Shown piece by piece: positions 1,693 to 44,372 of a DNA stretch of 64,000 nucleotides (positions within the stretch are counted from its first letter, which is position 1; every line of letters starts with the position of its first letter). The notes under the pieces were generated by a model that saw nothing but the letters and a program-made list of their open reading frames with translations, made no database searches and was not told the DNA's origin. Both the position numbers and the translations under genes were made by a program. Source of the DNA: an uncultured bacterium (GTDB taxonomy: Bacteria; CSSED10-310; CALFER01). The DNA is taken from the NCBI GenBank assembly GCA_937951895.1, contig CALFER010000090.1, forward strand, positions 25,648-89,647, read 5' to 3'.

Positions 1693-1702
1693 CGGTTCCG
1701 TC

Positions 1703-3028
1703 ATGAAGATCCTTTTTGTCTATCCCCGATTCCGCAAGTTCCTCGATGACCTGTCCCCCGAGGATCGATCATTTTTCGAGCCGATCCTGGGCGGTTTCAA
1801 AACCCCGCCTTCCCTGGGCATCCCGATTCTGGCGGCGCTGACCCCCTCCCGCCACCACGTCGAACTGCTCGATGATAATCTCGGAGAATCCGTCCGATTC
1901 GATACCGACGCGGATCTGGTGGCCATCAACTGCTTTACCCCCCAGGCCACACGAGCCTTCGAGCTGGCGGATGGATTTCGCGCCGCGGGGAAACGGGTGA
2001 TCATGGGCGGCATTTTCCCTTCGGCCATGCCGGATGAGGTTCTGGAGCATGCGGACGCGGTGAATATCGGAGAGGGTGAGCCGACCTGGAGGGGGATTCT
2101 GGAGGATGCCGAACGGGGTGAACTCAAGCGACGATACCTGGGCGGGAAGGGATTCGATCTGGCGTCGATGCCGATTCCCGATCGATCTCTGTTTTATGCC
2201 AAAGCAGGTTATGATTGGCATTCCGCCCTGGTCCAGATCGCCAGGGGCTGTGGCTACAACTGCGCCATGTGCGTAATCCCCGAGCATTTCGGACACAGGA
2301 TTCGATTCCGGCCCATCGCAGACATCGTTGAGGAGATCAGGGCGCTGCCATATGACCAGATCTATCTCGCGGACGACACCCTGTTTCTGACCGACCGCCG
2401 GAGCGTGCAGTATGCGACGGATCTGTTCGCCGCGCTGGCCCCGCTGAAGAAGCGGCTGTTCCTTTCCTCGACGCTCGCGCTCAATACGGATCTCGAATTC
2501 CTCAAGCTCGCCCGGACAGCCGGTACGGAAACATTTTACTGTACCTTGAACGTCGATCCCGTTTCGATGCGGGCAATCTATCCGGAGACCCAGACGCATC
2601 GCAGGCGGCTCATCGATCTGGTACACGCCATCAAAGATCTCGGCATCCACTTCTACGCCTCGTTCGGGATCGGCCGGGACTGGGATGATGCGAGCATCAC
2701 GGAACGGATTCTGGAGTTGAGCGTGCAGGCGGGAATCGATATCGCGGAATTCTTTATTTTCTCGCCATTCCCGGGATCCGTGCAGTTCCAGCGGATGAAC
2801 TCGCAGAAACGATTGTTGCACCGCCGCTGGGAACTCTATAACGGAGCCAACGTCGTCTACCTGCCCCTGAAGATGGATCCGGATGTTCTCCAGGACGTTT
2901 TCATGCGGACCTGGCGTGAGTTTTATCGCATAAACCGCCGCGACTGGGTGCTCGAACGCATGGGAAAGCACACCTCGAAGAGTCCGCATCCCGATCATGA
3001 CGTTCCGGGCGGATTGACCCCGAGATGA
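1703..3028 (+). CDS. B12-binding domain radical SAM protein (class B radical SAM methyltransferase-like)
   Basis: The N-terminal MKILFVYPRF...GIPILAALT...VAINCFTPQ...VIMGGIFPS is a cobalamin-binding Rossmann-like domain. It is followed by the radical SAM motif ARGCGYNCAMCVIPEHFG. The track ORF 1496-3028 is an upstream extension overlapping gene 1. ATG at 1703 fits the family N-terminus. Confidence 0.8.
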   Translation: MKILFVYPRFRKFLDDLSPEDRSFFEPILGGFKTPPSLGIPILAALTPSRHHVELLDDNLGESVRFDTDADLVAINCFTPQATRAFELADGFRAAGKRVIMGGIFPSAMPDEVLEHADAVNIGEGEPTWRGILEDAERGELKRRYLGGKGFDLASMPIPDRSLFYAKAGYDWHSALVQIARGCGYNCAMCVIPEHFGHRIRFRPIADIVEEIRALPYDQIYLADDTLFLTDRRSVQYATDLFAALAPLKKRLFLSSTLALNTDLEFLKLARTAGTETFYCTLNVDPVSMRAIYPETQTHRRRLIDLVHAIKDLGIHFYASFGIGRDWDDASITERILELSVQAGIDIAEFFIFSPFPGSVQFQRMNSQKRLLHRRWELYNGANVVYLPLKMDPDVLQDVFMRTWREFYRINRRDWVLERMGKHTSKSPHPDHDVPGGLTPR

Positions 3029-7679: not shown

Positions 7680-7798
7680 CCCGTAACGATCTCGATTCCA
7701 TAACCCGAAAAACGTTCTTGGAAATTGTGTCTCTATTTGCTAAACATATCTCTTCTATCGACCATCCAATCCAGTCAGGAAGGAAGAATCGCAATAGA

Positions 7799-8119
7799 AT
7801 GAATGCGTCAATCGAAAACAGAATAGCGACCCGGTCGGCAGTGATTTCCCGTGTCAAACGCGATCTGATCCAGAGGCTGTCACTTTCTTATACCGAAGAG
7901 GATCTGCATGAAGATGCATCGCTCATCGGCTCCGGTCTCGGACTCGATTCACTCGATGCGCTCGAAATCATTCTCGGGATCGAACAGGAATTCAGGGTCA
8001 AGATCGAGGAAGGCAACATTTCCGTGTTGCGCTCCATCAATACGATCGTCGACTATATTCTCGAAAATCAAACACACCCGGCCGCGTCGGCGCAGGTCAC
8101 GGAAGGAGGCACACGATGA
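7799..8119 (+). CDS. Acyl carrier protein
   Basis: The phosphopantetheine-site motif LGLDSLDALEI is present. About 106 aa if started at ATG 7799, which has AGGAAGGA upstream. The track ORF starts earlier at 7718. Confidence 0.75.
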   Translation: MNASIENRIATRSAVISRVKRDLIQRLSLSYTEEDLHEDASLIGSGLGLDSLDALEIILGIEQEFRVKIEEGNISVLRSINTIVDYILENQTHPAASAQVTEGGTR

Positions 8120-9231
8120 CGTACAGGTCTCCCCTGCATGACCTCTCAGTATCACGAAATGCCGTGCTGACGTCGCGGGACGGATTCACCGCGGTCTCGC
8201 GTTATCGCCCGCTGGAAGACGAGTATCGCACCATACGAGAAGCCGTCGGAATGACCGATTTTTCGCATTTCCAGAAGTTCTGTTTCCGGGGTGAGGAGGC
8301 GCTGTATTTTCTGGACGAGATTCTGCCTGCGAACATCGCCAACATCCGCTACGGCCGCGTCATCCACACGTTTCTCGCAGATGACGATGGGAACCTGTTG
8401 AGCGATGTGTATGTGGCGAATCAGGACGATACGATCTGGATGATCTGCGAGAGTTGCGTTGAAACCGCCGTCATCGAACAGCGGCTGGCTGCTGCGAATA
8501 GCCACCGAATTCCTTACGACCACCTGACCGACTCGTTTGCGGCATTCTCGATCGACGGACCGCAGGCCTGGGCGGTGGCGCGTGAGATGTTCGGCCCGGA
8601 TGTGCTGGGGATGCCCTACCTGTCCGTCGAACTGCACGATGAAAGCGGCGATGGCATCGTGCTGCTGCGCACAGGCAAAACCAGTGAGTTCGGATACCTG
8701 ATGCTGGTGCCGGTCGCGCGTTGCAGGGATGTCTACGAGCGTCTGCTGGCTCTGACAGAGACCCGGAGCGGGGCGGCATGCGGGATCGATGTGTTCGACA
8801 TCCTCAAGCTCGATGGTCGTTTCTTCAACATCAACCAGGAAGGGCGGATCGTCCGCGATCCTCTCACGCTGGGACTGCAATGGATGATCGACTTTCAGAA
8901 GGATACGTATCACGGCAAGTCAGCGATCGACAGGCGGCGTGAATCCGGATTGACTCGGAAGATCATCGGTTTGAAAGCACTCGCAGCGGGAACGCCGATG
9001 AATCGTGATACACGGATCGTTTCAGGTGAAGAAACAGTGGCTGAGGTCGTCACCGTGGGCTACTCGCAGGCACTGGACACCCAGATGGCGCTGGCATTGT
9101 TCGACATCCGTTATGCCTATTCCGGACTGGAGTTCATCGCGCAGACCGAGACTGGAAACGTGCCGGTGCAGACGGTATCGCTTCCTCCGTTCATCCCCCG
9201 GAGCCTCACGATCAAACTCGATGAGATGTAG
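8116..9231 (+). CDS. GcvT-fold (aminomethyltransferase / YgfZ-like) folate-binding family protein
   Basis: 371 aa. Overall resemblance to glycine-cleavage T-protein family proteins, for example the N-terminal ...IREAVGMTDFSHFQKFCFRGEEALYFLDEIL. ATGA overlap with the ACP stop. Confidence 0.55.
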   Translation: MTYRSPLHDLSVSRNAVLTSRDGFTAVSRYRPLEDEYRTIREAVGMTDFSHFQKFCFRGEEALYFLDEILPANIANIRYGRVIHTFLADDDGNLLSDVYVANQDDTIWMICESCVETAVIEQRLAAANSHRIPYDHLTDSFAAFSIDGPQAWAVAREMFGPDVLGMPYLSVELHDESGDGIVLLRTGKTSEFGYLMLVPVARCRDVYERLLALTETRSGAACGIDVFDILKLDGRFFNINQEGRIVRDPLTLGLQWMIDFQKDTYHGKSAIDRRRESGLTRKIIGLKALAAGTPMNRDTRIVSGEETVAEVVTVGYSQALDTQMALALFDIRYAYSGLEFIAQTETGNVPVQTVSLPPFIPRSLTIKLDEM

Positions 9232-9237
9232 TCGGGC

Positions 9238-9675
9238 ATGAAACGGGAGATCCGCGGATCGATCGATATCCGGGTCGAGTTTCGTGATGTGGATATGCTC
9301 GGAGTCGCGCACAACTCGGTTTATTTTCTTTGGTTCGAGCGCGGGAGACTTGCTCTGCTCGAATCGATCATTCCCTTTCAAACCGCATTGGATCAGCAGA
9401 TCGCTCTGATCGTCGTGCGGCAAACCTGTGAGTACCATGCTCCGGCGCTCCTCGGAGATGATCTGATCCTGACGACACGTACCGATCTGTCTGATGCCTA
9501 TGGCGGCCGCATTCGATGCGCGCATACGCTTTCCAATCGTCGAACCCTGATCGAGATTGCCTCGGGGGAAACGGATCTGACCATGTGGAACATCGAATCA
9601 CGCAAGCTGATACGCGAGATACCCGATTTCATCCGGACTCGGATCCGGGATCTCCTGCATGGAGTGACGTCATGA
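9238..9675 (+). CDS. Hotdog-fold acyl-CoA/acyl-ACP thioesterase (4HBT/YbgC-like)
   Basis: 145 aa. [30 protein letters not shown] is typical of 4HBT thioesterases. Its stop overlaps the fabG-like start (ATGA). Confidence 0.6.
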
Positions 9676-10418
9676 GCACGTTGCTGGAAGGCAAAACCGT
9701 CATTGTGACGGGAGGAACGCGAGGAATCGGACGGGCGATTGTCGAATGCCTGCATCGTGAAGGGGCCCGGGTCTGGTTCACGTACATCCGGAGCGATGCC
9801 ATCGCCGCCGAGATGCAGCAGTCGCTTGACGGTGTCCGCTCGTTCCGGATCGACGGAACCGATCGATCCGCGATCGCGGCGTGTCTGGACGAATGCCAGT
9901 CGACGTGCGGCGCCCCCGACGTCCTCGTCAACAATGCGGGCGTGACCAGCAACATGTTCTTCCCGATGATGAATTCCGAAGAGTGGAACAGGGTCATCGC
10001 AGCGAATCTCACCACCGTGTTCAACTGGACGAGGGAAACGATCCGGCCGATGTTGATCGCGCGGAAAGGATCGATCATCAACATTGCCTCCGTGTCGGGC
10101 GTCTTCGGAGTCTCGGGTCAGTCGGCCTACAGTGCCTCCAAAGGAGCGATGCTGGCGTTTACCCGGACCATCGCCGCTGAAACGGCATCGAAAGGCATCC
10201 GAGTCAATGGAATCGTGCCTGGATTCATCGACACGGAGATGACGGCGAAGATACCGAAACCGCTTCGGATGAAATACCTCGAACGCATCAGCATGCAACG
10301 GTTCGGGACACCGGATGAAGTCGCATCGGTCGTTCTGTTTCTGGCCTCGGATCTCTCATCGTATATCACCGGTCAGACCATCATCGTCGATGGCGGTTTG
10401 ACGGCGACCTTCAACTGA
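9672..10418 (+). CDS. fabG: 3-oxoacyl-ACP reductase (SDR, FabG-like)
   Basis: [23 protein letters not shown] contains the NAD(P)-binding motif. The catalytic-region motifs ...SVSG...YSASKGA are present. The track ORF 9516 is an upstream extension. Confidence 0.8.
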
Positions 10419-10419
10419 G

Positions 10420-11352
10420 ATGAAAACGGCGTTTCTGTTTCCCGGACAGGGTTCGCAGTTTGTCGGCATGGGTCGCGATCTCGTCCGATCATCCCCCTCC
10501 GCACTTGCGCTTTTCGAACGCGCGTCCGAGATTTCCGGAATCGATATCGCCGCTGCGTGTGTTCGCGGCCCCCTGTCGCGATTGTCCCGGACCGATGTGC
10601 TTCAGCCGTGCATCACAACCGTCAACCTCGCGGTACTCGAAGAACTCACCGCAAGGGGCGTCCGAGCGGAAGCGGCGGCCGGCCATTCGCTGGGTGAGTT
10701 TTCCGCATGTGTGGCCTCGGGTGTATTCCCGGCGGACACCGCCATCGAATTGACAACCCGCCGCGGACATCTGATGCACGAAGCGTCCATATCGACGCCG
10801 GGAACCATGGCTGCCGTCATCGGTTTACCGGCCGATCGGATCGAGTCCCTGATCAGCGTTCGCTGCGATCCGTTGCTGGTGGCCGCGAATTTCAATGCAC
10901 CGGATCAGACGGTCGTATCGGGACCGCGCGCGGCCATTGACTCACTTTCCGCTTCGATACGTGACGAAGGCGGTCGAATCGTCTTTCTTCAGGTTTCAGG
11001 TGCCTGGCACTCTCCGGCTATGAATTCCGCCGCAGATCTCTGGAAAGATGCGGTCGATCGAGTTCCGATCCGTCCTCCGGCGATCGATCTTTACATGAAT
11101 GTATCGGGTTGCGCCGAGTCCGACCCGTCCGCGATACGCCGATGCATGGAATCCCAGTTGGTCCGTCCTGTTCGCTGGACGACGATCCTGACGCACATGT
11201 ATCGATCCGGTGTTCGCCGGTTCCTGGAAATCGGCCCCGGAACGGTTCTCAGGCAACTGCTCCGCGCCAATCCTTTCCCGCCCGAAAGTTACACCGTGCA
11301 CTCCGTCGCTGATATCAGAAGCATCGATAATCTCCTTGCCCACTCCCCCTGA
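10420..11352 (+). CDS. fabD: Malonyl-CoA:ACP transacylase (FabD-like)
   Basis: MKTAFLFPGQGSQFVGMG and GHSLGEFSA (active-site Ser) are present. 310 aa. Confidence 0.85.
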   Translation: MKTAFLFPGQGSQFVGMGRDLVRSSPSALALFERASEISGIDIAAACVRGPLSRLSRTDVLQPCITTVNLAVLEELTARGVRAEAAAGHSLGEFSACVASGVFPADTAIELTTRRGHLMHEASISTPGTMAAVIGLPADRIESLISVRCDPLLVAANFNAPDQTVVSGPRAAIDSLSASIRDEGGRIVFLQVSGAWHSPAMNSAADLWKDAVDRVPIRPPAIDLYMNVSGCAESDPSAIRRCMESQLVRPVRWTTILTHMYRSGVRRFLEIGPGTVLRQLLRANPFPPESYTVHSVADIRSIDNLLAHSP

Positions 11353-11384: not shown

Positions 11385-12860
11385 GTGACGATGACGCTCC
11401 GACTTGCCGTTCCCTGTATTGTTGTGCTCTTGTTTGCGATTCCGTCGAGTCTGTCGACCCCGCCGCAACCGTATGAATTCGATTACGGCCAGAGTCGCCC
11501 GGGGGGACTCGATCGGACTTTTGATCATAACAGGACTCCGACGATCGATCATGTGAGGGAATGGGAGCAGATCTGCCTTTTCCTGGATCGATGGCAGGTC
11601 AGCGATCCGACCGACCCCGAATTCGGAGGCATGATCGAAGATGAGTATCGAACGGGTGCGGATCGGATCGTCGAATCCGACAACACGCAGGAGGCGATTT
11701 TCGCCTGGTGCCGGTACATGGAACTGACGGGATCGACGCAATTCGATCAGAATGTCACCGACGCCTGGACCTACCTCACGGTATTCCCGGCCTGGCTGGA
11801 AGAACCCGTTCACTATGCTCTCTGGAATTGCGCGTGGGGCATTCAGGCTCACAGACAGTATCAAAAAACCTACGCATCGGATGCGCACCGCGCTTACGCA
11901 GACCAGTGCGCCGAATTCATTCTCACGCATGATCTTTCTTTCCAGGGCACTCCGCCGCAGGTGGGCTACCGGAACGTGTTCATCACAGCCTGGGCTGCCT
12001 ATCATCTCCATCTGTTTGCCTCGGAAGCACCGGATCCGGATCTGATTATCCGCGCGGAAAACATGGCAACCCGCGTCAGGGATTGGCTGGCCGAGGATCC
12101 GGCGAACATTCTGAAAACCGGATGGGCGCTGTCGGGGGGTGCGGCTGCGGCCGCGGTGATCCATGTGCTGTATCATGACGATCCCGAAGGAGCGTTGGCG
12201 TACTATGAAGCGAATCTGCTGGACATGCCTCTGTACTTCGATCCGGCCGATTTCAATCCCTCCTCGTGGATCCACGCCTGGGACAGTTTTCTTGCACTCG
12301 CCCAGAACACCCTCTGGCGCGTCACACAGCGGTTTGAATTCCGCTTGAATGCGCTCGAACAATCCGAATTCATGCGATCGCACGATGGGGACGGCGACGG
12401 AGGGATTCCTCCGAATCCTTCGATGTCGGACACCGAGGATCACACCTGGGTATCGACCTACATCACGGTGATGGGATTCGATATGCTGGATGAACCGTCT
12501 CGGGTCAGTCTTTCGATGCCGGACTCATCGCTTGCAGCCGGTGATCGCATGGAGGCGGGAATCCAGGTTGTCGCTCCGGGATTGGATCGAACTGCCGACC
12601 TGTATCTCGTTCTCGAAATCGCCAACCAGTTTCTGTTCTTCCCGCAGTTCACGGACCAACCCGAAGCCATACGGCTTGTTTGCCCGATCGGGTACGATCT
12701 CGCGGCAGCTCTCGGTTTCCAGGACACCATCCCCTTCCTGACAATTGATCCGTGGCCGTCAGCCGGCTCATTTTCGGCCACCTGGTGGGCCGCATTGATC
12801 GACCCGGCCACATCTGAATTGATCGGTGATCTCATTACCCTGCCGTGGGCCTCGGAATGA
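11385..12860 (+). CDS. Secreted hypothetical protein (signal peptide), function unknown
   Basis: Hydrophobic N-terminus MTMTLRLAVPCIVVLLFAIPSS. GGAGG RBS. No recognisable catalytic motif. Confidence 0.5.
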   Translation: MTMTLRLAVPCIVVLLFAIPSSLSTPPQPYEFDYGQSRPGGLDRTFDHNRTPTIDHVREWEQICLFLDRWQVSDPTDPEFGGMIEDEYRTGADRIVESDNTQEAIFAWCRYMELTGSTQFDQNVTDAWTYLTVFPAWLEEPVHYALWNCAWGIQAHRQYQKTYASDAHRAYADQCAEFILTHDLSFQGTPPQVGYRNVFITAWAAYHLHLFASEAPDPDLIIRAENMATRVRDWLAEDPANILKTGWALSGGAAAAAVIHVLYHDDPEGALAYYEANLLDMPLYFDPADFNPSSWIHAWDSFLALAQNTLWRVTQRFEFRLNALEQSEFMRSHDGDGDGGIPPNPSMSDTEDHTWVSTYITVMGFDMLDEPSRVSLSMPDSSLAAGDRMEAGIQVVAPGLDRTADLYLVLEIANQFLFFPQFTDQPEAIRLVCPIGYDLAAALGFQDTIPFLTIDPWPSAGSFSATWWAALIDPATSELIGDLITLPWASE

Positions 12861-12895: not shown

Positions 12896-14242
12896 ATGAA
12901 CGAATCCAGACGGACACTGATAGAAAACGCACGGATCTGGGCGGGACCCGGATCGGAAATAGAACACGGTGCGATTGCTTTCGAGGGGAACCGATTCATC
13001 GATCCGGCAACAGCCAGGGACGATCCGGGCAGCATTCGGAGAGACGGGAGCAATCTCCTCCACATGCCGGGCTTCGTGAACGCGCACGGCCATCTTTACA
13101 GTGCGCTCGCCCGAGGCATGCCGGCACCTCCCCGGCAAGCCGGAAACTTCGCGCAGATTCTGGAATACATCTGGTGGAGGCTGGACAAGGCACTGGACCC
13201 GGAATCCCTATTGATGAGTGCATACACCGGGATTATGGACAGCATCCGCTCCGGGGTGACCACGATCTTCGATCATCATGCGAGCCCTCGTGCCATCGAC
13301 GGCAGTCTTTCCGTAATTGCGTCGGCACTCAAGGATATCGGGATGCGGGGAGATCTCTGTTACGAAGTTTCGGATCGCGACGGAACAGCCGCGGCCCGGG
13401 CTGGAATCCGGGAGAACGAACGGCACCTCGAGTCGCTCAGACAACATCCCGATCCGCTTCTGGCCGGCCATTTCGGCCTGCACGCTCTGTTCACGCTTTC
13501 AGACGAGACACTGAAGGAATCGGTTCAGGCGGCGGAGAAACTCGGAACGGGGTTTCATGTTCATGTGGCGGAGGGTCCGGAGGATGTGGAACTCTCTCAG
13601 ACCCGTCACGGCATGGGGCTAATCCCGAGAATGCTGAAACACGACATGCTCAGACCCGATACATTGCTGATCCATGGCGTGCATCTGACTTCGGATGATC
13701 TGGCGACGCTTGCCCGCCACCCGGTCACGCTCGTGCACAATCCCCAGTCCAATCAGAACAATGCGGTCGGATTCTGCGATATCACAGCCGTTCATGATGC
13801 CGGAGTCAATCTGGCACTCGGGAACGATGGAATCGGAGGAGCGATCCTCCCCGAGCTTCGTGCGGCGGTGTTTGCAGGACACCATGCCGCCCGGTCACCG
13901 GGCAGGCCTTCCTGGGCGCTCCCGTTCTCGATGCTCATGCACGCCAACACTACCCTTGCAACAAAGGCGTTCGGCATCCCGATCGGAAGAATTGAGCCGG
14001 GATATGCCGCGGATTTCATCACGGTCGACTACATCCCTCCGACACCCTGGACCATAGACAACACCATCGGTCATTTCCTGTTCGGATTGTGTGAACGGCT
14101 TCGGGTGCATGACGTCTGGGTGAACGGCACTCAGGTTTTAGGCGGCGGACGGTTCATCCGGATCGACGAGGATCAGATCGCGGAGCGAAGCCGGGCGGCC
14201 GCGACAGCAGTATGGGAAAAACTCTCCGCCGATCGATTGTAA
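12896..14242 (+). CDS. ssnA: SsnA-family aminohydrolase (amidohydrolase superfamily)
   Basis: HMPGFVNAHGHLYSALARGM...ILEYIWWRLDKALDPESL...IFDHHASP closely parallels E. coli SsnA (PGIVCSHNHFYSGLSRG...WWRLDRALDEESL...IDHHASP). ATG 12896 has an AGGAG RBS. The track ORF starts at GTG 12845. Confidence 0.75.
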   Translation: MNESRRTLIENARIWAGPGSEIEHGAIAFEGNRFIDPATARDDPGSIRRDGSNLLHMPGFVNAHGHLYSALARGMPAPPRQAGNFAQILEYIWWRLDKALDPESLLMSAYTGIMDSIRSGVTTIFDHHASPRAIDGSLSVIASALKDIGMRGDLCYEVSDRDGTAAARAGIRENERHLESLRQHPDPLLAGHFGLHALFTLSDETLKESVQAAEKLGTGFHVHVAEGPEDVELSQTRHGMGLIPRMLKHDMLRPDTLLIHGVHLTSDDLATLARHPVTLVHNPQSNQNNAVGFCDITAVHDAGVNLALGNDGIGGAILPELRAAVFAGHHAARSPGRPSWALPFSMLMHANTTLATKAFGIPIGRIEPGYAADFITVDYIPPTPWTIDNTIGHFLFGLCERLRVHDVWVNGTQVLGGGRFIRIDEDQIAERSRAAATAVWEKLSADRL

Positions 14243-14280: not shown

Positions 14281-15174
14281 ATGTTTCACGAGCACATCGG
14301 AGAGGTCGCCGCCCTTCTGACCGCCGCATTCTGGACAACCACCGCCATGTCCTTCGAAATTGCGGGAAAACGCGTCGGATCGCTCCCCGTGAATCTCATT
14401 CGCCTGTTTTTCGGTTTCGGATTCCTCTCGACTTACTCGATCCTGTCCCGGGGCATGTTTCTCCCGATCGATGCCTCGATGCATGCCTGGTTCTGGCTGT
14501 CGCTGTCCGGATTCGTCGGCTTTGTGATCGGCGATCTTCTTCTGTTCCGGGCATTTGTTCTCATAGGTTCCAGGACATCCATGCTGATCATGTCCGCGGT
14601 GCCACCCATGACAGCACTTATCGGTTGGGTATTTCTGGGAGAGACGCTGTCGGCGAGGCATCTGGTGGGCATGAGTGTGACGGTGGCGGGGATTGCCATG
14701 GTCGTGCTGAAAAAAAACCATGCCACCTCCCCCGCTCTTTCCGCGAACATCCCGGGGTATCTGTGTGCAACCGGAGGTGCGCTGGGGCAGGCGGTCGGCC
14801 TCGTGCTCAGCAAATTCGGAATGGAATCCTACAATGCCTTTGCCGCCACTCAGATTCGGATCATCGCAGGACTGATCGGTTTCGCAGCAGTATTCGCTTT
14901 TAGAAAAGAGTGGCACAGAGTGTTTCGTGCGTTTCGGGATGGACGGGCGATGCTGTTCCTGACGATCGGCTCCTTTTTCGGTCCTTTTCTGGGGGTTTCG
15001 TTTTCGCTTCTGGCGGTTCAGCATACTGCCACCGGCATCGCATCGACGATCATGTCGATCGTTCCGATCCTGATCATTCCTCCCGCAGTCATCTTCCTGA
15101 AAGAAAGCGTCAGTCTCCGGGAGGTGGTCGGCGCAGCGATCGCCGTGATCGGAATCGCGATGATGTTCGTGTGA
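14281..15174 (+). CDS. EamA/DMT-superfamily transporter
   Basis: About 10 predicted TM helices. The two-repeat EamA architecture is present. Confidence 0.7.
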   Translation: MFHEHIGEVAALLTAAFWTTTAMSFEIAGKRVGSLPVNLIRLFFGFGFLSTYSILSRGMFLPIDASMHAWFWLSLSGFVGFVIGDLLLFRAFVLIGSRTSMLIMSAVPPMTALIGWVFLGETLSARHLVGMSVTVAGIAMVVLKKNHATSPALSANIPGYLCATGGALGQAVGLVLSKFGMESYNAFAATQIRIIAGLIGFAAVFAFRKEWHRVFRAFRDGRAMLFLTIGSFFGPFLGVSFSLLAVQHTATGIASTIMSIVPILIIPPAVIFLKESVSLREVVGAAIAVIGIAMMFV

Positions 15175-27030: not shown

Positions 27031-27175
27031 GCGTCATTCCTCCCATGCGTATCATGAGCGGATCAGATTCAATGATCGTGAGAATCTCGCAAGATTTTCC
27101 ACATCCAATCAAACCTCGCTCTTGACCGCCGCCGAACACGCTTTCTATATTGGAAGGATTGCAAGGAGGTTCATC

Positions 27176-28372
27176 ATGATTGAGATTCAAAAACAGCGTC
27201 AGGAGATCGAAACCAATGTGTCCCAGTTTCTGGGAGATATGATCCGAATCCCCTCGACCAGCGGGAATGAAGGAGGCGTGATCCATCGCATCGCTTCCGA
27301 AATGAAAACGGTCGGATTCGATGATGTCAGAATCGATCCATTCGGGAATGTCATCGGAAGAATCGGATCAGGGCCTCGCCTGATTGCTTTCGATGCGCAT
27401 GTCGATACGGTGGATGTCGGAAACCGGAGCCTGTGGGAATTCGACCCGTTTTCAGGTCACATCCGGGACGGATTTGTCTGGGGTCGCGGCGCATCCGATC
27501 AGGAAGGCGGCATGGCATCCATGGTCCACGCCGGATGGCTCATGAAGAAATACGGTCTTCTCGATCCCGAATTCACGGTGCTCATGACCGGAACCGTCTC
27601 GGAGGAAGATTGCGATGGATTGTGCTGGCGATACCTGATCGAGAAGGAGGGGATTCGGCCGGAACTGGTCGTGGTTACAGAACCGACGGACTGCCGATTG
27701 TATCGCGGACAGCGGGGACGGATGGAAATCACGGCGACCATGCCGGGAGTCAGCTCGCATGGATCCGCTCCGGAACGCGGCGACAACGCGATCATCAAGA
27801 TGGCCGAGATCATCCGGCAGGTCCCTTCGCTGGCTAAGCGTCTGGGTGTCGACGAGTTTCTCGGGAAAGGCTCCATCACGATCAGTCAGGCCACATCGAC
27901 CGCCCCCTCCCTGTGCTCGGTGGCGGACTCCTGCCAGATCTACTTCGATCGCCGGCTGACCTGGGGAGAAACACCGGATCACGCGGTCGAGGAAATCCGG
28001 AAGCTCGATCCGACCGGACAACTCAAGGTCGAGGTTCCCGAGTATACGACTCCGACGCACACCGGACTGGTGTATCCGGTCGTAAAGGAGTTTCCCGCCT
28101 GGAAGACACCCGAGTCGCATGCATCGGTGCAGGCCGGTATCCGGACATTCAGCGAACTGTTCGGCCGTCCCGTCGAGGTCGGCCGCTGGACGTTCTCGAC
28201 GAACGGCGTGGCGATTTCCGGAGTGCACCGGATTCCGTGCATCGGATTCGGACCGGGGCGCGAGGAATGGGCGCACGCGCCGAACGAGCGGATCGCGATC
28301 GAACAACTCACGATGGCGGCCCTGTTTTATGCGTACTTCCCGTCGTTTTATCTGAAGGCCTGTCGCGGGTGA
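27176..28372 (+). CDS. M20 family peptidase/deacylase (YgeY-like)
   Basis: MIEIQKQRQ...IPSTSGNEGGV...GRGASDQEG is typical of M20 peptidases. AGGAGG RBS before ATG 27176. The track ORF starts earlier at 27029. Confidence 0.7.
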   Translation: MIEIQKQRQEIETNVSQFLGDMIRIPSTSGNEGGVIHRIASEMKTVGFDDVRIDPFGNVIGRIGSGPRLIAFDAHVDTVDVGNRSLWEFDPFSGHIRDGFVWGRGASDQEGGMASMVHAGWLMKKYGLLDPEFTVLMTGTVSEEDCDGLCWRYLIEKEGIRPELVVVTEPTDCRLYRGQRGRMEITATMPGVSSHGSAPERGDNAIIKMAEIIRQVPSLAKRLGVDEFLGKGSITISQATSTAPSLCSVADSCQIYFDRRLTWGETPDHAVEEIRKLDPTGQLKVEVPEYTTPTHTGLVYPVVKEFPAWKTPESHASVQAGIRTFSELFGRPVEVGRWTFSTNGVAISGVHRIPCIGFGPGREEWAHAPNERIAIEQLTMAALFYAYFPSFYLKACRG

Positions 28373-28399
28373 ACCGGATTTAACTCGTAATGCATTCAT

Positions 28400-28427
28400 T
28401 TGATTGACTTCATCTTCATGTTATGAT
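28400..28427 (+). promoter_or_regulatory. Putative sigma70-type promoter for the ygeW-hyuA pair (TTGATT-16-TATGAT)
   Basis: AT-rich gap after the M20 gene. -35 TTGATT at 28400-28405 and -10 TATGAT at 28422-28427, with 16-nt spacing. It lies about 40 nt upstream of the ygeW start. Confidence 0.3.
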
Positions 28428-28467
28428 GCACGAGGTCACTCAACGGACTTTATACAAGGAGGAGCGG

Positions 28468-29454
28468 ATGCAGACATTGTTCAGAAACAAACACCTGATC
28501 ACTCTTCAGGAATGGACACGCGAAGAAATCGACACCCTGCTCGAAACATCCAAACACCTCAAACTGATGTTTGCGATGGGTCAGCCGCACCGGTATCTGC
28601 AGGATAAAACCGCGTTCATGATCTTCTTCGAGCAGTCGACACGGACTCGGAATTCCGTGGAAGCCGGCATCACCCAACTCGGCGGACATGCCCATGATCT
28701 GACACCGGACAAGATGCAGTTGTCTCATGGTGAGTCGGCGAAGGATACCGCGATGGTGCTGTCTCGATTCGGTCATGGCATTGCAATCCGGAATTGTTTT
28801 TATGGAATCGGCAACAAGTATCTCCGGGAAGTCGCTCACTACAGCTCAATCCCGATCATCAATCTCCAGGATGATCTCTATCACCCGCTTCAGGCATTGG
28901 CCGATCTGATGACCATCCAGGAAAAGTTCGGCTCCACGCAGGGGCTCAAAGTCACGATTTCATGGGCATATGCCACCTCTCATGCGAAACCGCTCTCCGT
29001 TCCGTTATCCCAGATCCTTCTGTTCACGCGTTACGGGATGGATGTCACGGTGGCCGCACCGAAGGAATTCCCCCTGCTTCCGGATCTGGTGGCTCAAGCT
29101 GATCAAAATGCACAACAGCACGGCGGCAAACTGTCGTTCGTCGACAATATGGACGAGGGGTTCAAGGGCGCTCACGTCGTGATCCCGAAAAACTGGGGTG
29201 GGTTCGCCTGCACGCAGGATCCCAAGGAAATGTCCGCGAATCTTGAAAAGTACAAGAGCTGGATCTGCAACGAACAACGCATGGCACTTGCATCGAAGGA
29301 CGTCGTCTACATGCATGCTCTCCCGGCGGACCGTGGAAAGGAAGTCACCGACGCGGTCATCGACGGACCACACTCGATAATCTATGACGAGGCCGAAAAT
29401 CGACTGCATACCGTCAAGGCCGTCATGGCGCTGACCATGGGAGGCCGTCCCTGA
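28468..29454 (+). CDS. ygeW: YgeW-type knotted carbamoyltransferase
   Basis: FEQSTRTRNS (the STRTR carbamoyl-phosphate motif), ...KPLSVP... and TRYGMDVTVAAPKEF parallel E. coli YgeW (STRTR, KPLSVPQ, TRFGMDVTLAHPEGY). AAGGAGG RBS. Confidence 0.8.
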   Translation: MQTLFRNKHLITLQEWTREEIDTLLETSKHLKLMFAMGQPHRYLQDKTAFMIFFEQSTRTRNSVEAGITQLGGHAHDLTPDKMQLSHGESAKDTAMVLSRFGHGIAIRNCFYGIGNKYLREVAHYSSIPIINLQDDLYHPLQALADLMTIQEKFGSTQGLKVTISWAYATSHAKPLSVPLSQILLFTRYGMDVTVAAPKEFPLLPDLVAQADQNAQQHGGKLSFVDNMDEGFKGAHVVIPKNWGGFACTQDPKEMSANLEKYKSWICNEQRMALASKDVVYMHALPADRGKEVTDAVIDGPHSIIYDEAENRLHTVKAVMALTMGGRP

Positions 29455-30842
29455 GGCATCGCGCCGATTTCGATCATCCTGCGGACAACTGGATCATTCG
29501 TGGCGGTGCGATCGTCACCCCGGACGCCCTGATTCAGGGCGATATCCGGGTATCGGACGGTCGCATCGCCGAGATTGCCCCGGCCGTTCACGGAGTTTCC
29601 GCTCCGGAACTGGACGCTTCCGGCAAAATCGTACTCCCGGGGATCGTCGATCCCCATGTCCACTTTTCACTGCCGGTCGGTGAACGCATCACCTCCGATG
29701 ATTTTTCAGCCGGTTCCCGCGCGGCTCTGTTCGGAGGAGTCACAACCGCCATCGATTTTTCAACCCCCTCCCCCGCCATGTCCCTCTCGGATTCCATCCG
29801 CTCCCGTGTCCACGAACGACGGTTCAGTCGGATCGATATGGCGATCCACGGCACGATCTGCGGCTGGTCCGATTCCATGGCGACTGATATCGAAGCAGCC
29901 ATTGCCGACGGAGTCACCAGTTTCAAGTTTTTCACAACATACGAGGAGAGCGGCCGGAGAACGACGTACGGAGAGTTGGAAGCAGCCGCCCGATGCCTGG
30001 CGGATCTCGGCGTGATCATGACCGTACACGCCGAGGATAACTCGGTGATTCAAGCCTCTGCACCACGGAGTGATTCATTCAGTCTGTATGAATCCTCCAG
30101 ACCTGAAGCAGCCGAAGCCGAGGCAATAAGTCGATTGGCTTATATTGCGGATTCGATCGATGTCGGGATCTACATTGTCCATCTGAGTTCCCGGTTGGGG
30201 TACGAAGCGGCCGTCGGATCGAAGCTGATGCTGGAAACCTGCCCGCATTACCTGCTCCTCGATCGATCGCGTTTCGACCGACCGGATGGTTATCGGCATG
30301 CGCTTGCCCCCCCCCTGCGCAGCATCGAATCACAATCTGTGCTTTGGGAGGGGCTCAAAAGCGGCCGGATTGCGACGATTGCGACCGATCATTGTGTCTT
30401 CTCTCCGGAAGAGTATCGATCAGCCGGAGATCACTTTCGTCAGGCACCGTACGGTCTTCCGGGAGTCGAAACCTCACTGCCGCTCATGGTCACCCATGGT
30501 GTCAAGACCGGACGCATGAGTTGGAACGATCTGGCGGATCGGATGAGCACCGGGCCGGCGAAGATTTTCGGGTTATGGCCGGAGAAGGGTGAGATTCGTG
30601 TTGGGGCGCATGCCGATCTCGTGATTCTGGATCCGACCCATTCGCGGGCGGTCGAACCGCTTGATCTGCATAGCCGGACCGACTGGAATCCGTATTCGGG
30701 AATGATCCTTTTCGGATGGCCGGAAATCGTTTTTCTTAGAGGCCGGATTGCAATTGCTTCCGGTCAATGTTTTCTGGAGCCGGGAGCAGGCCGATACTTA
30801 CCGCGTGGCGTTTCGCATGACGCACACAGTCCCCTCGGATAA
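29451..30842 (+). CDS. hyuA: D-phenylhydantoinase/dihydropyrimidinase-family cyclic amidohydrolase (HyuA-like). The start is non-canonical.
   Basis: GIVDPHVHFSLPVGERITSDDFSAGSRAALFGGVTTAIDF matches E. coli HyuA ([40 protein letters not shown]). The homologous region begins near 29493, but the first ATG/GTG/TTG in frame is at 29778. CTG 29451 with GGGAGG 6 nt upstream is proposed as the start. Confidence 0.7.
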   Translation: MRHRADFDHPADNWIIRGGAIVTPDALIQGDIRVSDGRIAEIAPAVHGVSAPELDASGKIVLPGIVDPHVHFSLPVGERITSDDFSAGSRAALFGGVTTAIDFSTPSPAMSLSDSIRSRVHERRFSRIDMAIHGTICGWSDSMATDIEAAIADGVTSFKFFTTYEESGRRTTYGELEAAARCLADLGVIMTVHAEDNSVIQASAPRSDSFSLYESSRPEAAEAEAISRLAYIADSIDVGIYIVHLSSRLGYEAAVGSKLMLETCPHYLLLDRSRFDRPDGYRHALAPPLRSIESQSVLWEGLKSGRIATIATDHCVFSPEEYRSAGDHFRQAPYGLPGVETSLPLMVTHGVKTGRMSWNDLADRMSTGPAKIFGLWPEKGEIRVGAHADLVILDPTHSRAVEPLDLHSRTDWNPYSGMILFGWPEIVFLRGRIAIASGQCFLEPGAGRYLPRGVSHDAHSPLG

Positions 30843-31640
30843 TCGTCCATATCGAATCGCCTGCAGTTCCGCCATGATCGACACTGCGATTTCGGTTGGA
30901 TTGTCACCCCCGATATCGAGACCGATCGGTGAAAATACCCGGTCCAGTGCATCCCTTTGAACACCCGATTTTGCGATGTTTTCAAGAACCGTCCCGACTT
31001 TTTTCCTCGATCCGATCATCCCGATATAACGGGGAATCTCCGATTCGTTCCTGAGCAACGCATTGAGGACGTCCGAATCATATCGGTGATTATGGGTCAG
31101 GATGACGATCGAGTCGGATGGAAACAACGGCATGATCCCGGCATGTTCGACGGGGTGTGCGCAGATGACCGTGGTACGGTTGGAGAATCGATCTGCACGA
31201 GCAAAATCAGGGCGATCATCGATGATGGTGACATCGAATCCGCATCCCTGCGCAATCGGAGTTATCGCGGAACCGATGTGCCCTGCACCGAAAATGATAA
31301 TCCGGTCGAGAGGACGGAGCAACTCGTAGTAAAGCGTCATCAGACCGCCGCAAAGCATGCCGGTCTTCTGACTGACCGGGTTGATCACTCCGGATGTCAG
31401 GTCATACTCCTGCAGCATGTTCTGCTCACGTCCGGAAAACATCCGGCAAGCGGTTTCCTTCGCGATGTTTTCGATCGCTCCTCCACCGATCGTGCCCATG
31501 ATGTCCCCTGAGTGGCGAACCAGCATTTTCGATCCGGCAGCACGGGGAGAACTGTCCTGAGCGCGCACAACCGTCACCAGTACGGCGGGTTCGGCACTGC
31601 CGTTTTCAATGCGGATGATCTCTTCATAGAGATTCTTCAT
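30798..31640 (-). CDS. XdhC/CoxI-family molybdenum-hydroxylase accessory protein
   Basis: An N-terminal XdhC_CoxI domain is followed by a Rossmann-like IIFGAGHIGSAI. Convergent with hyuA, overlapping it by 45 bp. Confidence 0.7.
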   Translation of the reverse strand: MKNLYEEIIRIENGSAEPAVLVTVVRAQDSSPRAAGSKMLVRHSGDIMGTIGGGAIENIAKETACRMFSGREQNMLQEYDLTSGVINPVSQKTGMLCGGLMTLYYELLRPLDRIIIFGAGHIGSAITPIAQGCGFDVTIIDDRPDFARADRFSNRTTVICAHPVEHAGIMPLFPSDSIVILTHNHRYDSDVLNALLRNESEIPRYIGMIGSRKKVGTVLENIAKSGVQRDALDRVFSPIGLDIGGDNPTEIAVSIMAELQAIRYGRLSEGTVCVMRNATR

Positions 31641-40430: not shown

Positions 40431-41014
40431 GATGCACGGGAGTATTTGAACGATGGGCTGTCATTGTTTTCCTGTTGCTCGGCGCGACAGTGTCGGCGCA
40501 GGAAGGTTCACCGACTCAGAATGACCATAAGCGGCGTGAAGATGCCCGTGAGATGATGGAATCGATCCGCATCTGGAAGATCACGCAGGAACTGGAAGTC
40601 GATGAGTCACTCGCGTCACGCCTCTTTCCCAGGATCAACGAAAGCAATCGGATTCGACGCCAAACCGACCGGGATATTGCGAAATCTCTTGCTGAACTGC
40701 AAGTTCTCATCGAAAAAGGCGCTCCGGATTCTGCGTTGAACGCAGGGCTGGAAAACGTGATTCAGGTCCGCGAGAACGGCATGCGTGCGATCAGGCAATC
40801 CGAAGATCGCATCATGGAACTCCTGACGCCGAAACAGAAGGCGAAGTATCTGGTGCTGGAATCCGAGTTCCCCCGCAAGGTGCGGGATTTCATGCGGCAG
40901 CACCGAAGTCAGAAGCGCGGAGAAGCCGGTAATGGATCAGGACCACCGCCCTGGACGGATCCCCTACCTCCCGACGGACCCCCGGATTTTCCCGAACATC
41001 CTCACGGTGAGTAA
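40427..41014 (+). CDS. Periplasmic LTXXQ-motif protein (Spy/CpxP-like)
   Basis: Signal peptide. LTPKQKAKY is an LTXXQ motif. Coiled helical repeat. Confidence 0.55.
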   Translation: MRCTGVFERWAVIVFLLLGATVSAQEGSPTQNDHKRREDAREMMESIRIWKITQELEVDESLASRLFPRINESNRIRRQTDRDIAKSLAELQVLIEKGAPDSALNAGLENVIQVRENGMRAIRQSEDRIMELLTPKQKAKYLVLESEFPRKVRDFMRQHRSQKRGEAGNGSGPPPWTDPLPPDGPPDFPEHPHGE

Positions 41015-41511
41015 GTTTTCTCTGCCTGCTGTGCGTCCCGGATGACCTTGTTCGACAGATTCTGCTTATAGGCGTGCAGCAGGGGTTTCAGTTCGGTGAA
41101 TTCATTTGCAATGACCTGAACGGCAAACAGCGCGGCATTCCGGGCGCCTCCCTGTCCAACAGCCATCGTCGCCACCGGCACTCCGGGGGGCATCTGCACC
41201 ATCGACAGCATGGCATCCATTCCGAGCAGAACGGAAGAGGGAATCGGAACTCCGACAACCGGCAAGGTGGTCTCGGCTGCGATGGCTCCGGGTAATCCTG
41301 CAGACCAGCCCGCAGCCGCGATGATCACTCTCACTCCCAGCCCTTCTGCCTCCCGTGCGAGTGTGACCGTTCGTTCCGGTGTCCGGTGTGCGCTGCTCAC
41401 CGTCATCCGATATGGCACTTTGAACTCCTCGAGAATCTCGATTGCACCCGACACAACCGACAGATCCGATGAACTTCCGATAATGATTAAGACACGAGGA
41501 CACGATTTCAT
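41002..41511 (-). CDS. purE: N5-carboxyaminoimidazole ribonucleotide mutase
   Basis: VLIIIGSSSDL..., PVVGVP and the MAVGQGGARNAAL motifs are present. Confidence 0.85.
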   Translation of the reverse strand: MKSCPRVLIIIGSSSDLSVVSGAIEILEEFKVPYRMTVSSAHRTPERTVTLAREAEGLGVRVIIAAAGWSAGLPGAIAAETTLPVVGVPIPSSVLLGMDAMLSMVQMPPGVPVATMAVGQGGARNAALFAVQVIANEFTELKPLLHAYKQNLSNKVIRDAQQAEKTYSP

Positions 41512-42797
41512 TTCCCGACCTCCCTATCCAGCGCTCTCCAACCGATGTCATTCCGATAATAGATACCCTCAAACTGAATTTTTTTCAGGCGAGCATACGC
41601 CCGATCGCGAGCTCTCCGGAATGTGTCGCCCAGCGCACAGACCGCCAGCACGCGGCCTCCTGCAGTCCTGATCCCGCCGTCGGAATCACTCGCCGTTCCC
41701 GCATGAAACACCTCCACACCGGTCTCAGCGGCATCCCATGACGCATCGATGATCGGATAGCCCGATCGATACGCGCCCGGATACCCTCCGGACGCGGCAA
41801 CGACACAAACCGACGGACTGGGATCCCAGACCAGAGGTGGGAGTGCAGCGATCGTACCATTCACGGCCGCAAGGATCACATCGCAGAGATCGCTTTTCAG
41901 ACGCATGAGAACAGACTGGGTTTCCGGATCTCCGAAGCGCACGTTGTATTCGAGCACGTAAGGATGCGAATCGACAACCATGATTCCGACATACAGGATG
42001 CCGATGAAGGGGGAGCCATCCCGTCGCATCCCGAGAATTGTCGGGCGTATGATCTGTTCTTCGATCGTGTGTTTCAGCGGGGGTGTGATGACGGGAGCCG
42101 GCGAGTATGATCCCATTCCACCGGTGTTTGCACCCGTATCGCCTTCTCCGACAGCCTTGTGATCCTGGCTGGTTTCAAGCAGACACCAGCTTTCTCCATC
42201 ACTGACCGCCATGATCGAAGCCTCTTCCCCCACCAGTTTTTCCTCGACAAGTATCGTCGCGCCGGCATCTCCGAATCGTTTGTCGACGAGCATCATTCGT
42301 GCGGCAGAATCCGCCTCTTCCTCCCCGGAGCAGACCACCACCCCTTTTCCTGCCGCAAGGCCATCCGCCTTGATGACACATGCACCGTTGAATTGTCTGA
42401 TCGCGTTCCCGGCTTCCTCCAAGCTTCGACAGATCCTCCAGCGGGCAGTTGGAATCCCGTGTCTCGCCATGAACTCCTTCGCATACACTTTGCTGCCCTC
42501 GAGGCGAGCGGCACGTTCTGACGGCCCGAAGATTCGACAATCACCCAGTCGATCGACCAATCCCATGGTCAGAGGCGCTTCCGGGCCGATAACGATCAGA
42601 TCCGGTCGAAGATTCCGGGCGAATTGACAGAGGTCATCGATCCGATCAGACGGAATCGCATGACACGAGGCAATCCTGCTGATTCCTGCATTTCCCGGTG
42701 TCACGTGCAACTCGTGTCGATGCGCGGAGCGTTTCAGCGCCCAAACAATGGCGTGCTCGCGTCCCCCCCCACCGATAATCAGTATTTTCATGTTCAA
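41508..42797 (-). CDS. purD: Phosphoribosylamine--glycine ligase
   Basis: [19 protein letters not shown] and an ATP-grasp domain. Confidence 0.9.
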
Positions 42798-42803
42798 CCT
42801 CTC

Positions 42804-44372
42804 TCAATGCCTGAAATGTCGTTTGTCCGTGAAGATCATGGCAATCCCCTGCTCGTTGCAGGCCGCGATCACCTCATCGTCCCGCTTCGAACCTCCGGGT
42901 TGAATGACAGCCGTCACCCCATGCCGTGCCGCATGGTCGATCCCGTCCCGGAACGGGAAGAAGGCATCCGATGCCAGAACAGCCCCCCTCACACGCTGCC
43001 CGCCTTTTGTGCAAGCGATCGTGACCGAATCCACCCGACTTACCTGACCTCCACCGATCCCGACCGTTGCGCCATTCGATGCACAAACGATCGCGTTCGA
43101 TTTGACGTGACGCACGATCCTCCAGGCAAAATCCAGATCCCTGAGTTCTTCGGAAGTCGGAGCACGATTCGTCACCACCCGATGCGGCACACATCCGCGG
43201 TCGCTTCGATCCCGCTCCTGAATGAGGGCGCCTGAACCCATGAAACGCAGATCGAATGTCTGTTCCCTGAGGTCCGGAGGCATGCTGAGGATACGCCGGT
43301 TTTTCTTTTTCAGGAGCAGTTTCAAAGACTCTTCGGGATAATCCGGGGCGATGATGACTTCCAGAAAGGGTGTCTCGTTGAGAAGTTGAGCGACATCCAT
43401 CGTGACCGATTGATTGAGTGCGGCGATACCGCCATAGGCCGATACGGGATCACTGTCATACGCACGCCGGTAGGCATCGGCCAGGTTGTTCGCAGATGCA
43501 GCGCCGCATGGTGTCTGATGTTTGATTATCGCCACGGCAGCTTCGTCAAATGATCCCGCGACATCCCAGGCTGCCTGAGCATCCAGGATGTTATTGAAAG
43601 ACATCTCCAACCCGCCGTGAACGCGCGCGTTCAGGACACTGACTTTACTGGACAGCGGTACGACATAACGGGCGGCTTTCTGATGGGGATTTTCACCATA
43701 CCGAAGATCGGACTCATGCCGGAAAGGTATTGTGAGCAATCCGGATGGGAGCCCGGGGGTAGTGTGGGATCGAACGGCGTGTTGCCGGTAAAAGTAATCC
43801 GCAATCACGGCATCATAGTATGCTGTGTGCTGAAAGGCTTTCATGGCCAGTTCGAATCGGAAGGATTCCGGCAACACACCGTTTTCCCGTTCCAGCAAGT
43901 CGATAATCCTGGCGTAATCGCAGGTATCGGTAACAATTGCCGTATGCCGATAGTTCTTGGCAGCAGCACGGATCATCGAGGGCCCACCGATATCGATGTT
44001 TTCGATAATCAACTCGTGATCTTCCGGATCCTGCATGACAGTACGCTCAAAGGGATAAAGATTGACAACGATGATGTCAAAGGGTTCGATCGCGAGTGAA
44101 CGCAGGGTTTCAATGTGTCTCGAGTCGGATCGATCCGCCAGAATGCCGGCATGGATGTTCGGATGAAGCGTCTTGACCCGTCCATCCAGAATCTCCGGGA
44201 AATGTGTCACCGCACTGACATCGATCACTCGAAGTCCTTCCTTGCGAAGTGCGGTCGCTGTGCCGCCGGTCGAAATGATCTCAAAGCCATGATCACGGAG
44301 ATGCGTTGCGAACGTCGCGATGTCTGTCTTATCGGAAACACTGATAAGTGCTCGTTTCAAGGACGAATTCAT
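42804..44372 (-). CDS. purH: Bifunctional AICAR transformylase/IMP cyclohydrolase
   Basis: [33 protein letters not shown] (MGS-like) plus an AICARFT domain. Confidence 0.9.

Follow-up and report, generated by a model that had tools for sequence, protein, structure and literature searches.

We analyzed a 64,000-nucleotide stretch of DNA (hereafter, the window) from an uncultured bacterium of the CSSED10-310 lineage (GenBank assembly GCA_937951895.1, contig CALFER010000090.1), and in particular a four-gene block at positions 27176–31640. The block comprises a three-gene operon, encoding a YgeY-family hydrolase, a compact YgeW-type carbamoyltransferase and a D-hydantoinase, and a convergent xdhC gene. 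Our favored interpretation, to which we assign a probability of roughly 55%, is that this block is the ureide-stripping lower half of a reductive uric-acid/2,8-dioxopurine pathway, with an SsnA-like enzyme encoded further upstream supplying the hydantoin and the missing enzymes encoded elsewhere. By analogy with characterized systems, the block would most likely convert ureidomethyl-hydantoin to 2,3-diaminopropionate. An initial annotation of this DNA had proposed a conserved module for ureido compounds that was homologous to the Escherichia coli yge/ygf gene set, a view that our analysis supports.

The E. coli locus had been called uncharacterized in that annotation, which is outdated, as two studies from 2025 reconstituted it as a reductive uric-acid/2,8-dioxopurine pathway and assigned one step to each enzyme (PMC12507026; bioRxiv 10.1101/2025.04.24.650524). 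In that pathway urate is first reduced by XdhD-YgfM (called DOPDH in Clostridium), the resulting 2,8-dioxopurine is dearomatized by YgfK (UacX in C. difficile), and HyuA cleaves the hydantoin ring, which yields 2,3-diureidopropionate. Phosphorolysis by YgeW then takes away one ureido group as carbamoyl phosphate, from which ATP is obtained via the carbamate kinase YqeA, YgeY hydrolyzes the other ureido group, and YgeX converts 2,3-diaminopropionate to pyruvate and ammonia. Published variants have a D-aminoacylase homologue for YgeW and YqeA, and UacX or an F420-type enzyme for YgfK (PMC12507026; bioRxiv 10.1101/2025.04.24.650524).

Open reading frames (ORFs) were found at the positions initially annotated for all five genes of interest, that is, the four genes of the block and the ssnA-like gene. 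The first gene of the operon, ygeY (27176–28372, + strand, in an ORF that opens at 27029), encodes a 398-residue YgeY-family M20 metallohydrolase. It is followed on the same strand by the gene for the carbamoyltransferase (28468–29454, 328 residues) and by that for a D-hydantoinase/dihydropyrimidinase-type cyclic amidohydrolase of about 450–463 residues (29451–30842, in an open frame of 29442–30842), which has a non-canonical start codon. The fourth gene (30798–31640, − strand) encodes a 280-residue XdhC-family molybdenum-cofactor insertion/maturation factor, and is convergent with the hydantoinase gene, the 3' end of which it overlaps by 45 nt.

Searches of the window by tblastn with E. coli K-12 proteins identified homologues of YgeY (55% identity over 401 residues, E 5e-144), SsnA (36%, E 6e-79), HyuA (34%, E 2e-75), YgeW (34%, E 3e-56) and the XdhC domain of YqeB (29%, E 2e-29). 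The same searches of the 64-kb window gave no match to XdhA, XdhB, XdhD, YgfK, YgfM, YgeX, YqeA or MocA, confirming the original observation that ygeX and a carbamate kinase gene are lacking here. The motifs on which the likeness to E. coli had initially been based were present in the window proteins and also in their E. coli counterparts. These were STRTR and KPLSVP in the transferase (with TRYGMDV in the window where E. coli has TRFGMDV), VDPHVHF and DDFSAGSRAALFGGVTTAID in the hydantoinase, and, for the SsnA motif WWRLD.ALD.ESL, WWRLDKALDPESL together with HHASP in the SsnA-like protein. In comparison with a related locus (L005), the ratios of non-synonymous to synonymous substitution rates (dN/dS) were 0.03 for ygeY, 0.02 for the transferase gene, 0.12 for the hydantoinase gene and 0.11 for xdhC. 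Because all four genes are under purifying selection, the block is a maintained and functional unit.

YgeY passed both curated models for its family, with 531 bits for TIGR03526 (cut-off 321.5) and 529.6 bits for NF009555 (cut-off 321), and scored only 101 bits against the model for ArgE. It was the only protein among those of the block and the SsnA-like protein to score above its curated family cut-off, and it is predicted to act as a ureido-group (N-carbamoyl) amidohydrolase.

The transferase scored below all curated cut-offs. Its highest NCBIfam and PDB totals were for ornithine carbamoyltransferases (OTCs), namely 268.3 bits for TIGR00658 (cut-off 280.85) and 216 bits for the OTC of Pyrococcus furiosus, and it reached 233 bits for N-acetylornithine carbamoyltransferase (cut-off 288). 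The two YgeW models gave 202.7 bits (NF005538, cut-off 453) and 189.4 bits (TIGR03316, cut-off 500), and the initial assignment of this protein as YgeW proper could therefore not be retained; it belongs instead to a distinct, compact family. If translation began where the ORF opens, at the ATG of 28423, the protein would have 343 residues. The sequence AAGGAAGAGAGG stands 5' of the ATG at 28468, and relatives of the transferase are nearly all 328–340 residues long and start with MxTL. The family is large and conserved to an unusual degree. The best 120 database relatives were 66–100% identical to the window protein, typically had that same length, and came from Marinimicrobia, Petrotoga, Wallbacteria, Deltaproteobacteria, Firmicutes and other groups. 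Those among them with a name in public records were almost all called "ornithine carbamoyltransferase".

Alignment of the transferase with E. coli YgeW, ArgI and PyrB revealed several features common to the transferase and YgeW that are not in ArgI. These are the proline-rich loop WAYxxSxxKPLSVP, in which KPLSVP is identical to YgeW, an insertion of five residues in the 120s loop after the IR motif (IRNCFYGIGN in the transferase and IRDDMYLGAGN in YgeW), NLQxD ahead of HPxQ, and a W.C motif. The DxxxSMG motif of OTCs is replaced by PK.W in the transferase (which reads PKNWGGF), as it is in YgeW, and the HCLP motif of OTCs is absent from the transferase family, which has HALP instead. The KMQ of the transferase, which is invariant in 18 family members, aligns with KSQ of YgeW (Q98, in a short OTC-like 80s loop). 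The transferase, at 328 residues, is about 70 residues shorter than YgeW (396 residues), and in the alignment nothing in it corresponded to the extensions at the two ends of YgeW or to the greater part of the long 240s loop; its last helix (DEAENRLHT.KA) is OTC-like. When the two domains were compared separately by phmmer, the N-terminal carbamoyl-phosphate domain scored 74 bits to ArgI and 58 to YgeW, while the C-terminal, second-substrate domain scored 102 bits to YgeW and 23 to ArgI.

Knotted transcarbamylases are marked by a proline-rich loop and an extended 120s loop, and YTCase, the YgeW knotted transcarbamylase, by additional helices at the termini together with a long 240s loop (PMC4581275). 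The window transferase has the features of the knotted enzymes and lacks those specific to YTCase, and because of this combination we refer to it as "compact YgeW-type", a knot-signature enzyme that would be neither a YgeW equivalog nor an OTC. A Foldseek comparison of its AlphaFold2 model (pLDDT 77) with the PDB placed it about equally close to the unknotted P. furiosus OTC (TM-score 0.79) and to knotted AOTCase (TM-score 0.77). Genes for YgeW/YTCase have been reported to lie near one for carbamate kinase (PMC4581275; bioRxiv 10.1101/2025.04.24.650524), and we found a carbamate kinase in 5 of 80 loci of the compact family.

These 80 loci were kept for a gene-neighborhood survey from a scan of one genome per species, in which at least 581 stretches encoded relatives of the transferase, and they were searched by tblastn with the proteins of the window and with those of the E. 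coli pathway. In 62 of the 70 loci with enough upstream DNA, ygeY lay directly 5' of the transferase gene on the same strand, separated from it by a median of about 70 bp. Gene counts were made on the 39 loci of at least 15 kb from outside the CSSED10-310 lineage, 38 of which encode at least one of an xanthine dehydrogenase (XDH)-family hydroxylase (22/39), a YgfK-like reductase (26/39) and SsnA (25/39). Less frequent were a hydantoinase (17/39), mocA (15/39), xdhC (14/39), YgeX (5/39) and carbamate kinase (3/39). When all ORFs of the loci were clustered in an unbiased way, the same families emerged again, and no arginine-biosynthesis genes were among the recurrent families. This clustering also brought out two further recurrent neighbors, the ThrC-like and CysK-like proteins described below, that had not been among the queries. 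The compact transferase family and YgeY thus belong to purine/urate-degradation clusters across many phyla. This family was not singled out in the neighborhood analysis of PMC12507026, as any PF00185 protein was scored there as YgeW.

YgeX itself was found in only about 6 of the 80 loci. A ThrC-like pyridoxal phosphate (PLP) enzyme of about 415 residues, with a Cys-rich N-terminal motif and 232 bits for TIGR00260, was encoded in 43 of them (e.g., L073 5990–7237; L064 12945–14408), and a CysK-like PLP protein of about 487 residues in 29. These PLP proteins may take the place of YgeX in the last step; the window encodes neither of them. The ThrC-like gene begins right after the transferase gene in about 25 loci of other phyla, a slot that the hydantoinase gene fills in the CSSED10-310 lineage.

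The loci closest to the window by transferase were from an uncultured bacterium (97% identity) and from metagenome-assembled genomes of candidate division CSSED10-310 (80–85%), and we placed the host near this division because of these matches. The same gene order was present in the window, in five related loci (L005–L009) and in a relative's 4.29-Mb contig (L087), with genes for a CCA-adding enzyme and a glucan phosphorylase followed by ygeY, the transferase gene, the hydantoinase gene, the convergent xdhC and then housekeeping genes. The four-gene block was kept across the lineage down to about 45–50% identity in the hydantoinase and XdhC.

For the hydantoinase the best model was TIGR02033, at 364.8 bits (cut-off 393.25) and ahead of the next model by more than 40 bits. 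The motifs of the binuclear metal site (HxH, a carbamylated Lys, two His and an Asp) were all present, as VDPHVHF, SFK, VHAE, VHLS and TDH. Matches to solved D-hydantoinases were full-length, with residue 13–15 of the query aligned to their residue 3–4. Public gene calls and mechanical ORF lists open this gene at 29778, because there is no ATG, GTG or TTG in its frame between the preceding stop and that position, and the resulting protein of 354 residues has lost 109 residues, including the HxH metal ligands. The segment so excluded (29451–29777) had a dN/dS of 0.15 in the hydantoinase frame; out of frame, the values were 2.0 and 3.5. At the junction of the two genes (+ strand), a GGAGG Shine-Dalgarno sequence (29440–29444) lies six bases 5' of a CTG (29451–29453) that overlaps the TGA of the transferase gene (29452–29454), and this junction was identical in the window and L005; the relatives L006–L008 have an ATG start at the equivalent place. 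The most economical reading is that the hydantoinase probably starts by coupled re-initiation at CTG 29451, although ATC 29493 or ATT 29496 may serve as alternative starts. A programmed −1 frameshift that would fuse the transferase to the hydantoinase was set aside, as the relatives have separate ATG-started genes and the Shine-Dalgarno sequence is well spaced from the CTG.

Both Pfam domains of the XdhC family (XdhC_CoxI and XdhC_C) were identified on a public protein identical to the XdhC-like protein of the window. It scored below both NCBIfam cut-offs (NF045664, 234.7 vs. 350 bits; TIGR02964, 140.8 vs. 161.6). Convergent xdhC was in the same position in L005–L007, L009 and L087, and the retention of this gene suggests that a molybdenum hydroxylase is encoded elsewhere in the genome. 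The overlap of the 3' ends of xdhC and the hydantoinase gene, of about 15–50 nt, was kept in the window, L005, L006, L007 and L087, and neither gene therefore has space for a terminator of its own.

The ssnA-like gene (12896–14242, + strand, in an ORF that opens at 12845) encodes an amidohydrolase of 448 residues in the public call. The initial annotation was correct that an SsnA homologue is present upstream of the block, but it occupies a separate locus. SsnA co-localizes with YgfK/UacX and an XDH-family hydroxylase (PMC12507026), whereas the neighbors of the SsnA-like gene in the window encode a secreted protein of unknown function and an EamA transporter, with no YgfK/UacX or XDH-family hydroxylase among them. 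The 4.29-Mb contig of the relative likewise has an SsnA-like gene without redox genes beside it (L086). It is 53% identical, and its distance upstream of the block, about 15 kb, is like that in the window.

The secreted protein, ORF491 (11385–12860, + strand), has 491 residues and a signal-peptide-like N-terminus. Its gene is directly 5' of the SsnA-like gene and overlaps the ORF of the latter, and searches of Pfam, NCBIfam and the PDB with ORF491 gave no match. An orthologue with 44% identity was again directly 5' of the SsnA-like gene in the 4.29-Mb contig (L086 8526–10001), and L007 has a homologue with 48% identity. The EamA/DMT-family transporter gene (14281–15174, + strand) is immediately 3' of the SsnA-like gene, and could encode a carrier for a substrate or product; at this position L086 has a nitroreductase-family gene on the opposite strand.

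Our data show the classes of the enzymes, how the operon is built, that it is under purifying selection, and that this transferase family is tied to purine-degradation clusters in other phyla. We infer the substrates and the direction of flux by analogy with the enzymes of E. coli and Clostridium. The SsnA-like enzyme would act on reduced 2,8-dioxopurine, opening its six-membered ring and forming 5-(ureidomethyl)hydantoin, and the hydantoinase would open the hydantoin ring to give 2,3-diureidopropionate. The carbamoyltransferase would then take one ureido group by phosphorolysis, producing carbamoyl phosphate, and YgeY would hydrolyze the other, leaving 2,3-diaminopropionate. If the organism has the hydroxylase, the reductase, the terminal lyase and the carbamate kinase, their genes must lie outside the window.

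Several observations weigh against this interpretation. No XdhD/DOPDH, YgfK/UacX, YgeX or carbamate kinase was identified in the 64-kb window by tblastn or Pfam scans, and in five related genomes no hydroxylase, reductase, lyase or kinase gene was found closer than 10 kb to the block. The SsnA-like protein falls just short of both of its curated cut-offs (NF005540, 434.5 vs. 444 bits; TIGR03314, 408.1 vs. 455.5 bits; next family, 172 bits), its gene lies 13 kb from the block with unrelated housekeeping genes between them, and SsnA is missing from the syntenic site in L007, where the ORF491 homologue stands without an SsnA gene after it. The transferase scores below the YgeW model cut-offs given above, and the function of its family is putative. 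The hydantoinase was no closer to HyuA (254 bits) than to solved D-hydantoinases and pyrimidine-type dihydropyrimidinases (252–280 bits), and its initial assignment as HyuA specifically was not supported. In a rough neighbor-joining tree without support values, which took in four solved hydantoinases recovered from alignment printouts, the hydantoinases of the CSSED10-310 lineage formed a clade of their own, and that of the window grouped neither with HyuA nor with the hydantoinases embedded in uricolytic clusters. In addition, the two pathway studies disagree over which ureido group is taken by YgeW (PMC12507026; bioRxiv 10.1101/2025.04.24.650524).

Some of these observations would suit a module for a different cyclic ureide, such as a dihydropyrimidine, another 5-substituted hydantoin or a ureide scavenged from the environment, that operates independently of the 2,8-dioxopurine route. 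In that case the hydantoinase would open the ring, and the transferase and YgeY would strip carbamoyl groups, much like a hydantoinase/carbamoylase system, but one from which carbamoyl phosphate is obtained in addition. The CSSED10-310 block is isolated among housekeeping genes, and no gene for a hydroxylase, a reductase or YgeX lies within 10 kb of it. Its hydantoinase is apart from the cluster-embedded enzymes and matches pyrimidine-type dihydropyrimidinases as well as HyuA, and it fills the post-transferase slot that is often that of the ThrC-like enzyme in other phyla. A simple hydantoin or dihydropyrimidine, however, gives a single ureido group, for which one decarbamoylase would be enough, and the strict pairing of YgeY with the transferase fits a substrate with two. 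Moreover, the pair is found in the purine clusters of other phyla, and an SsnA-like gene and xdhC have been kept near the block. We regard a different ureide as the main alternative, possible but less likely than not. More speculatively, the compact transferase might be a fourth type of knotted carbamoyltransferase, mis-annotated as OTC and obligately paired with YgeY, with the CSSED10-310 block and its orphan SsnA forming a self-contained scavenging module that eats partly degraded purine ureides from other members of the community, outside of a full urate pathway, and with the ThrC-like PLP protein rather than YgeX as the usual terminal enzyme in other phyla. We consider this combination doubtful.

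The remaining explanations appear far less credible. That the block is the decaying remnant of a once complete urate cluster, with the lost hydantoinase start as the onset of pseudogenization, might be suspected from the lack of a canonical start in both the window and L005, and from the absence of upstream and terminal pathway genes in the neighborhood. The dN/dS values of 0.02–0.12 for the four genes, and of 0.15 for the part of the hydantoinase gene before its first ATG, are at odds with decay, as are the intact frames and catalytic motifs and the retention of the block in deeply diverged members of the lineage, others of which have ATG starts; we judge it highly improbable. We rejected the reading of the genes as ordinary arginine or pyrimidine genes, that is, an ArgE-type acetylornithine deacetylase, an ArgF ornithine carbamoyltransferase and a dihydroorotase-like enzyme, on the grounds of motifs, model scores and neighborhoods, and we attach almost no probability to it. 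The public name of the transferase and its highest total scores do point to OTC, and adjacency of ArgE and ArgF would be biochemically sensible. Nevertheless, the transferase is under the OTC cut-off, lacks the DxxxSMG and HCLP motifs and has a C-terminal domain with only 23 bits to ArgI, the M20 protein scored 531 bits as YgeY against 101 as ArgE, and the best models for the third enzyme were those of hydantoinases and dihydropyrimidinases. The recurrent neighbors, in turn, were XDH, YgfK, SsnA and mocA, and never arg genes.

The anaerobic urate pathway was solved only in 2025, in gut bacteria, and the locus described here points to the presence of the lower half of that pathway in uncultured phyla from the environment as well. 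Automated annotation names the compact transferase ornithine carbamoyltransferase. A survey based on models specific to YgeW, or one that trusts the OTC label, would therefore overlook such loci or take them for arginine-biosynthesis genes. In CSSED10-310 the block stands by itself, and so provides a natural test of ureide stripping as an independent module. These findings refine current understanding, with respect to annotation and to the range of the pathway, rather than overturn it.

Other features of the window were considered alongside the block. A sigma-70-like promoter match (TTGACC-18-TATATT, 27122–27151, + strand, 10/12 matches) is located 25 nt 5' of ygeY, although it is weak evidence, as site counts in a promoter and terminator scan of the region were not above the expectation from shuffled sequence. 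The G+C content of the window is about 53–60%. Pfam scans assigned the other ORFs to fatty-acid or polyketide-type, purine biosynthesis, housekeeping and cell-envelope genes, and no molybdoenzyme, carbamate kinase or diaminopropionate lyase was found among nearly all of them. A co-directional cluster at 1496–11352 (+ strand) encodes a B12-binding radical SAM protein, two large ketosynthase-domain proteins (800 and 751 residues), an acyl carrier protein, a GcvT-like aminomethyltransferase-fold protein, FabG and FabD, and looks like a specialized lipid or polyketide-type biosynthetic set. The genes purE, purD and purH of de novo purine biosynthesis (41002–44372, − strand) lie about 10 kb 3' of the block, and are probably unrelated to the catabolic module.

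The block shares with the arginine deiminase pathway, in which a catabolic OTC works with carbamate kinase, the phosphorolytic loss of a ureido group to carbamoyl phosphate, a possible source of ATP, but the window transferase lacks the motifs for recognition of ornithine and citrulline, and no carbamate kinase gene is nearby. A D-hydantoinase or dihydropyrimidinase is likewise combined with a subsequent amidohydrolase that acts on the N-carbamoyl product in hydantoinase/carbamoylase systems and in reductive pyrimidine (Pyd) degradation. These systems are not known to have a carbamoyltransferase, and their carbamoylases are of the nitrilase superfamily or are L-carbamoylase-type M20 enzymes, and are not known to be of the YgeY family. 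YTCase (PDB 3Q98; 2YFK from Enterococcus faecalis) differs from the window transferase in that the latter has an OTC-like N-terminal domain and C-terminal helix and HALP for HCLP, and the two are alike in KPLSVP, the extended 120s loop, the equivalent of Gln98, PK.W, W.C and the second-substrate domain.

The E. coli uricolytic cluster (ygeW-ygeX-ygeY-hyuA-yqeA/ygfK-ssnA-ygfM-xdhD) contains homologues of YgeY, HyuA, SsnA, YgeW and the N-terminus of YqeB (XdhC domain), and has the same logic of ring opening followed by two decarbamoylations. It differs in gene order (W-X-Y-H, compared with Y-W-H in the window), in the longer YgeW with its specific terminal helices and 240s loop, and in encoding XdhD/YgfM, YgfK, YgeX, YqeA and MocA, which the 64 kb of the window lack, while SsnA is at a separate locus in the window. 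The environmental uricolytic clusters with a compact transferase (Marinimicrobia, Ignavibacteria, Deltaproteobacteria, Halanaerobiales and others; L010–L084) usually include XDH-family, YgfK-like, SsnA and mocA genes, and often a ThrC-like PLP enzyme gene after the transferase gene, whereas the CSSED10-310 block has no redox genes nearby. In both, YgeY (about 50% identical) is paired with a transferase that is 63–75% identical to that of the window.

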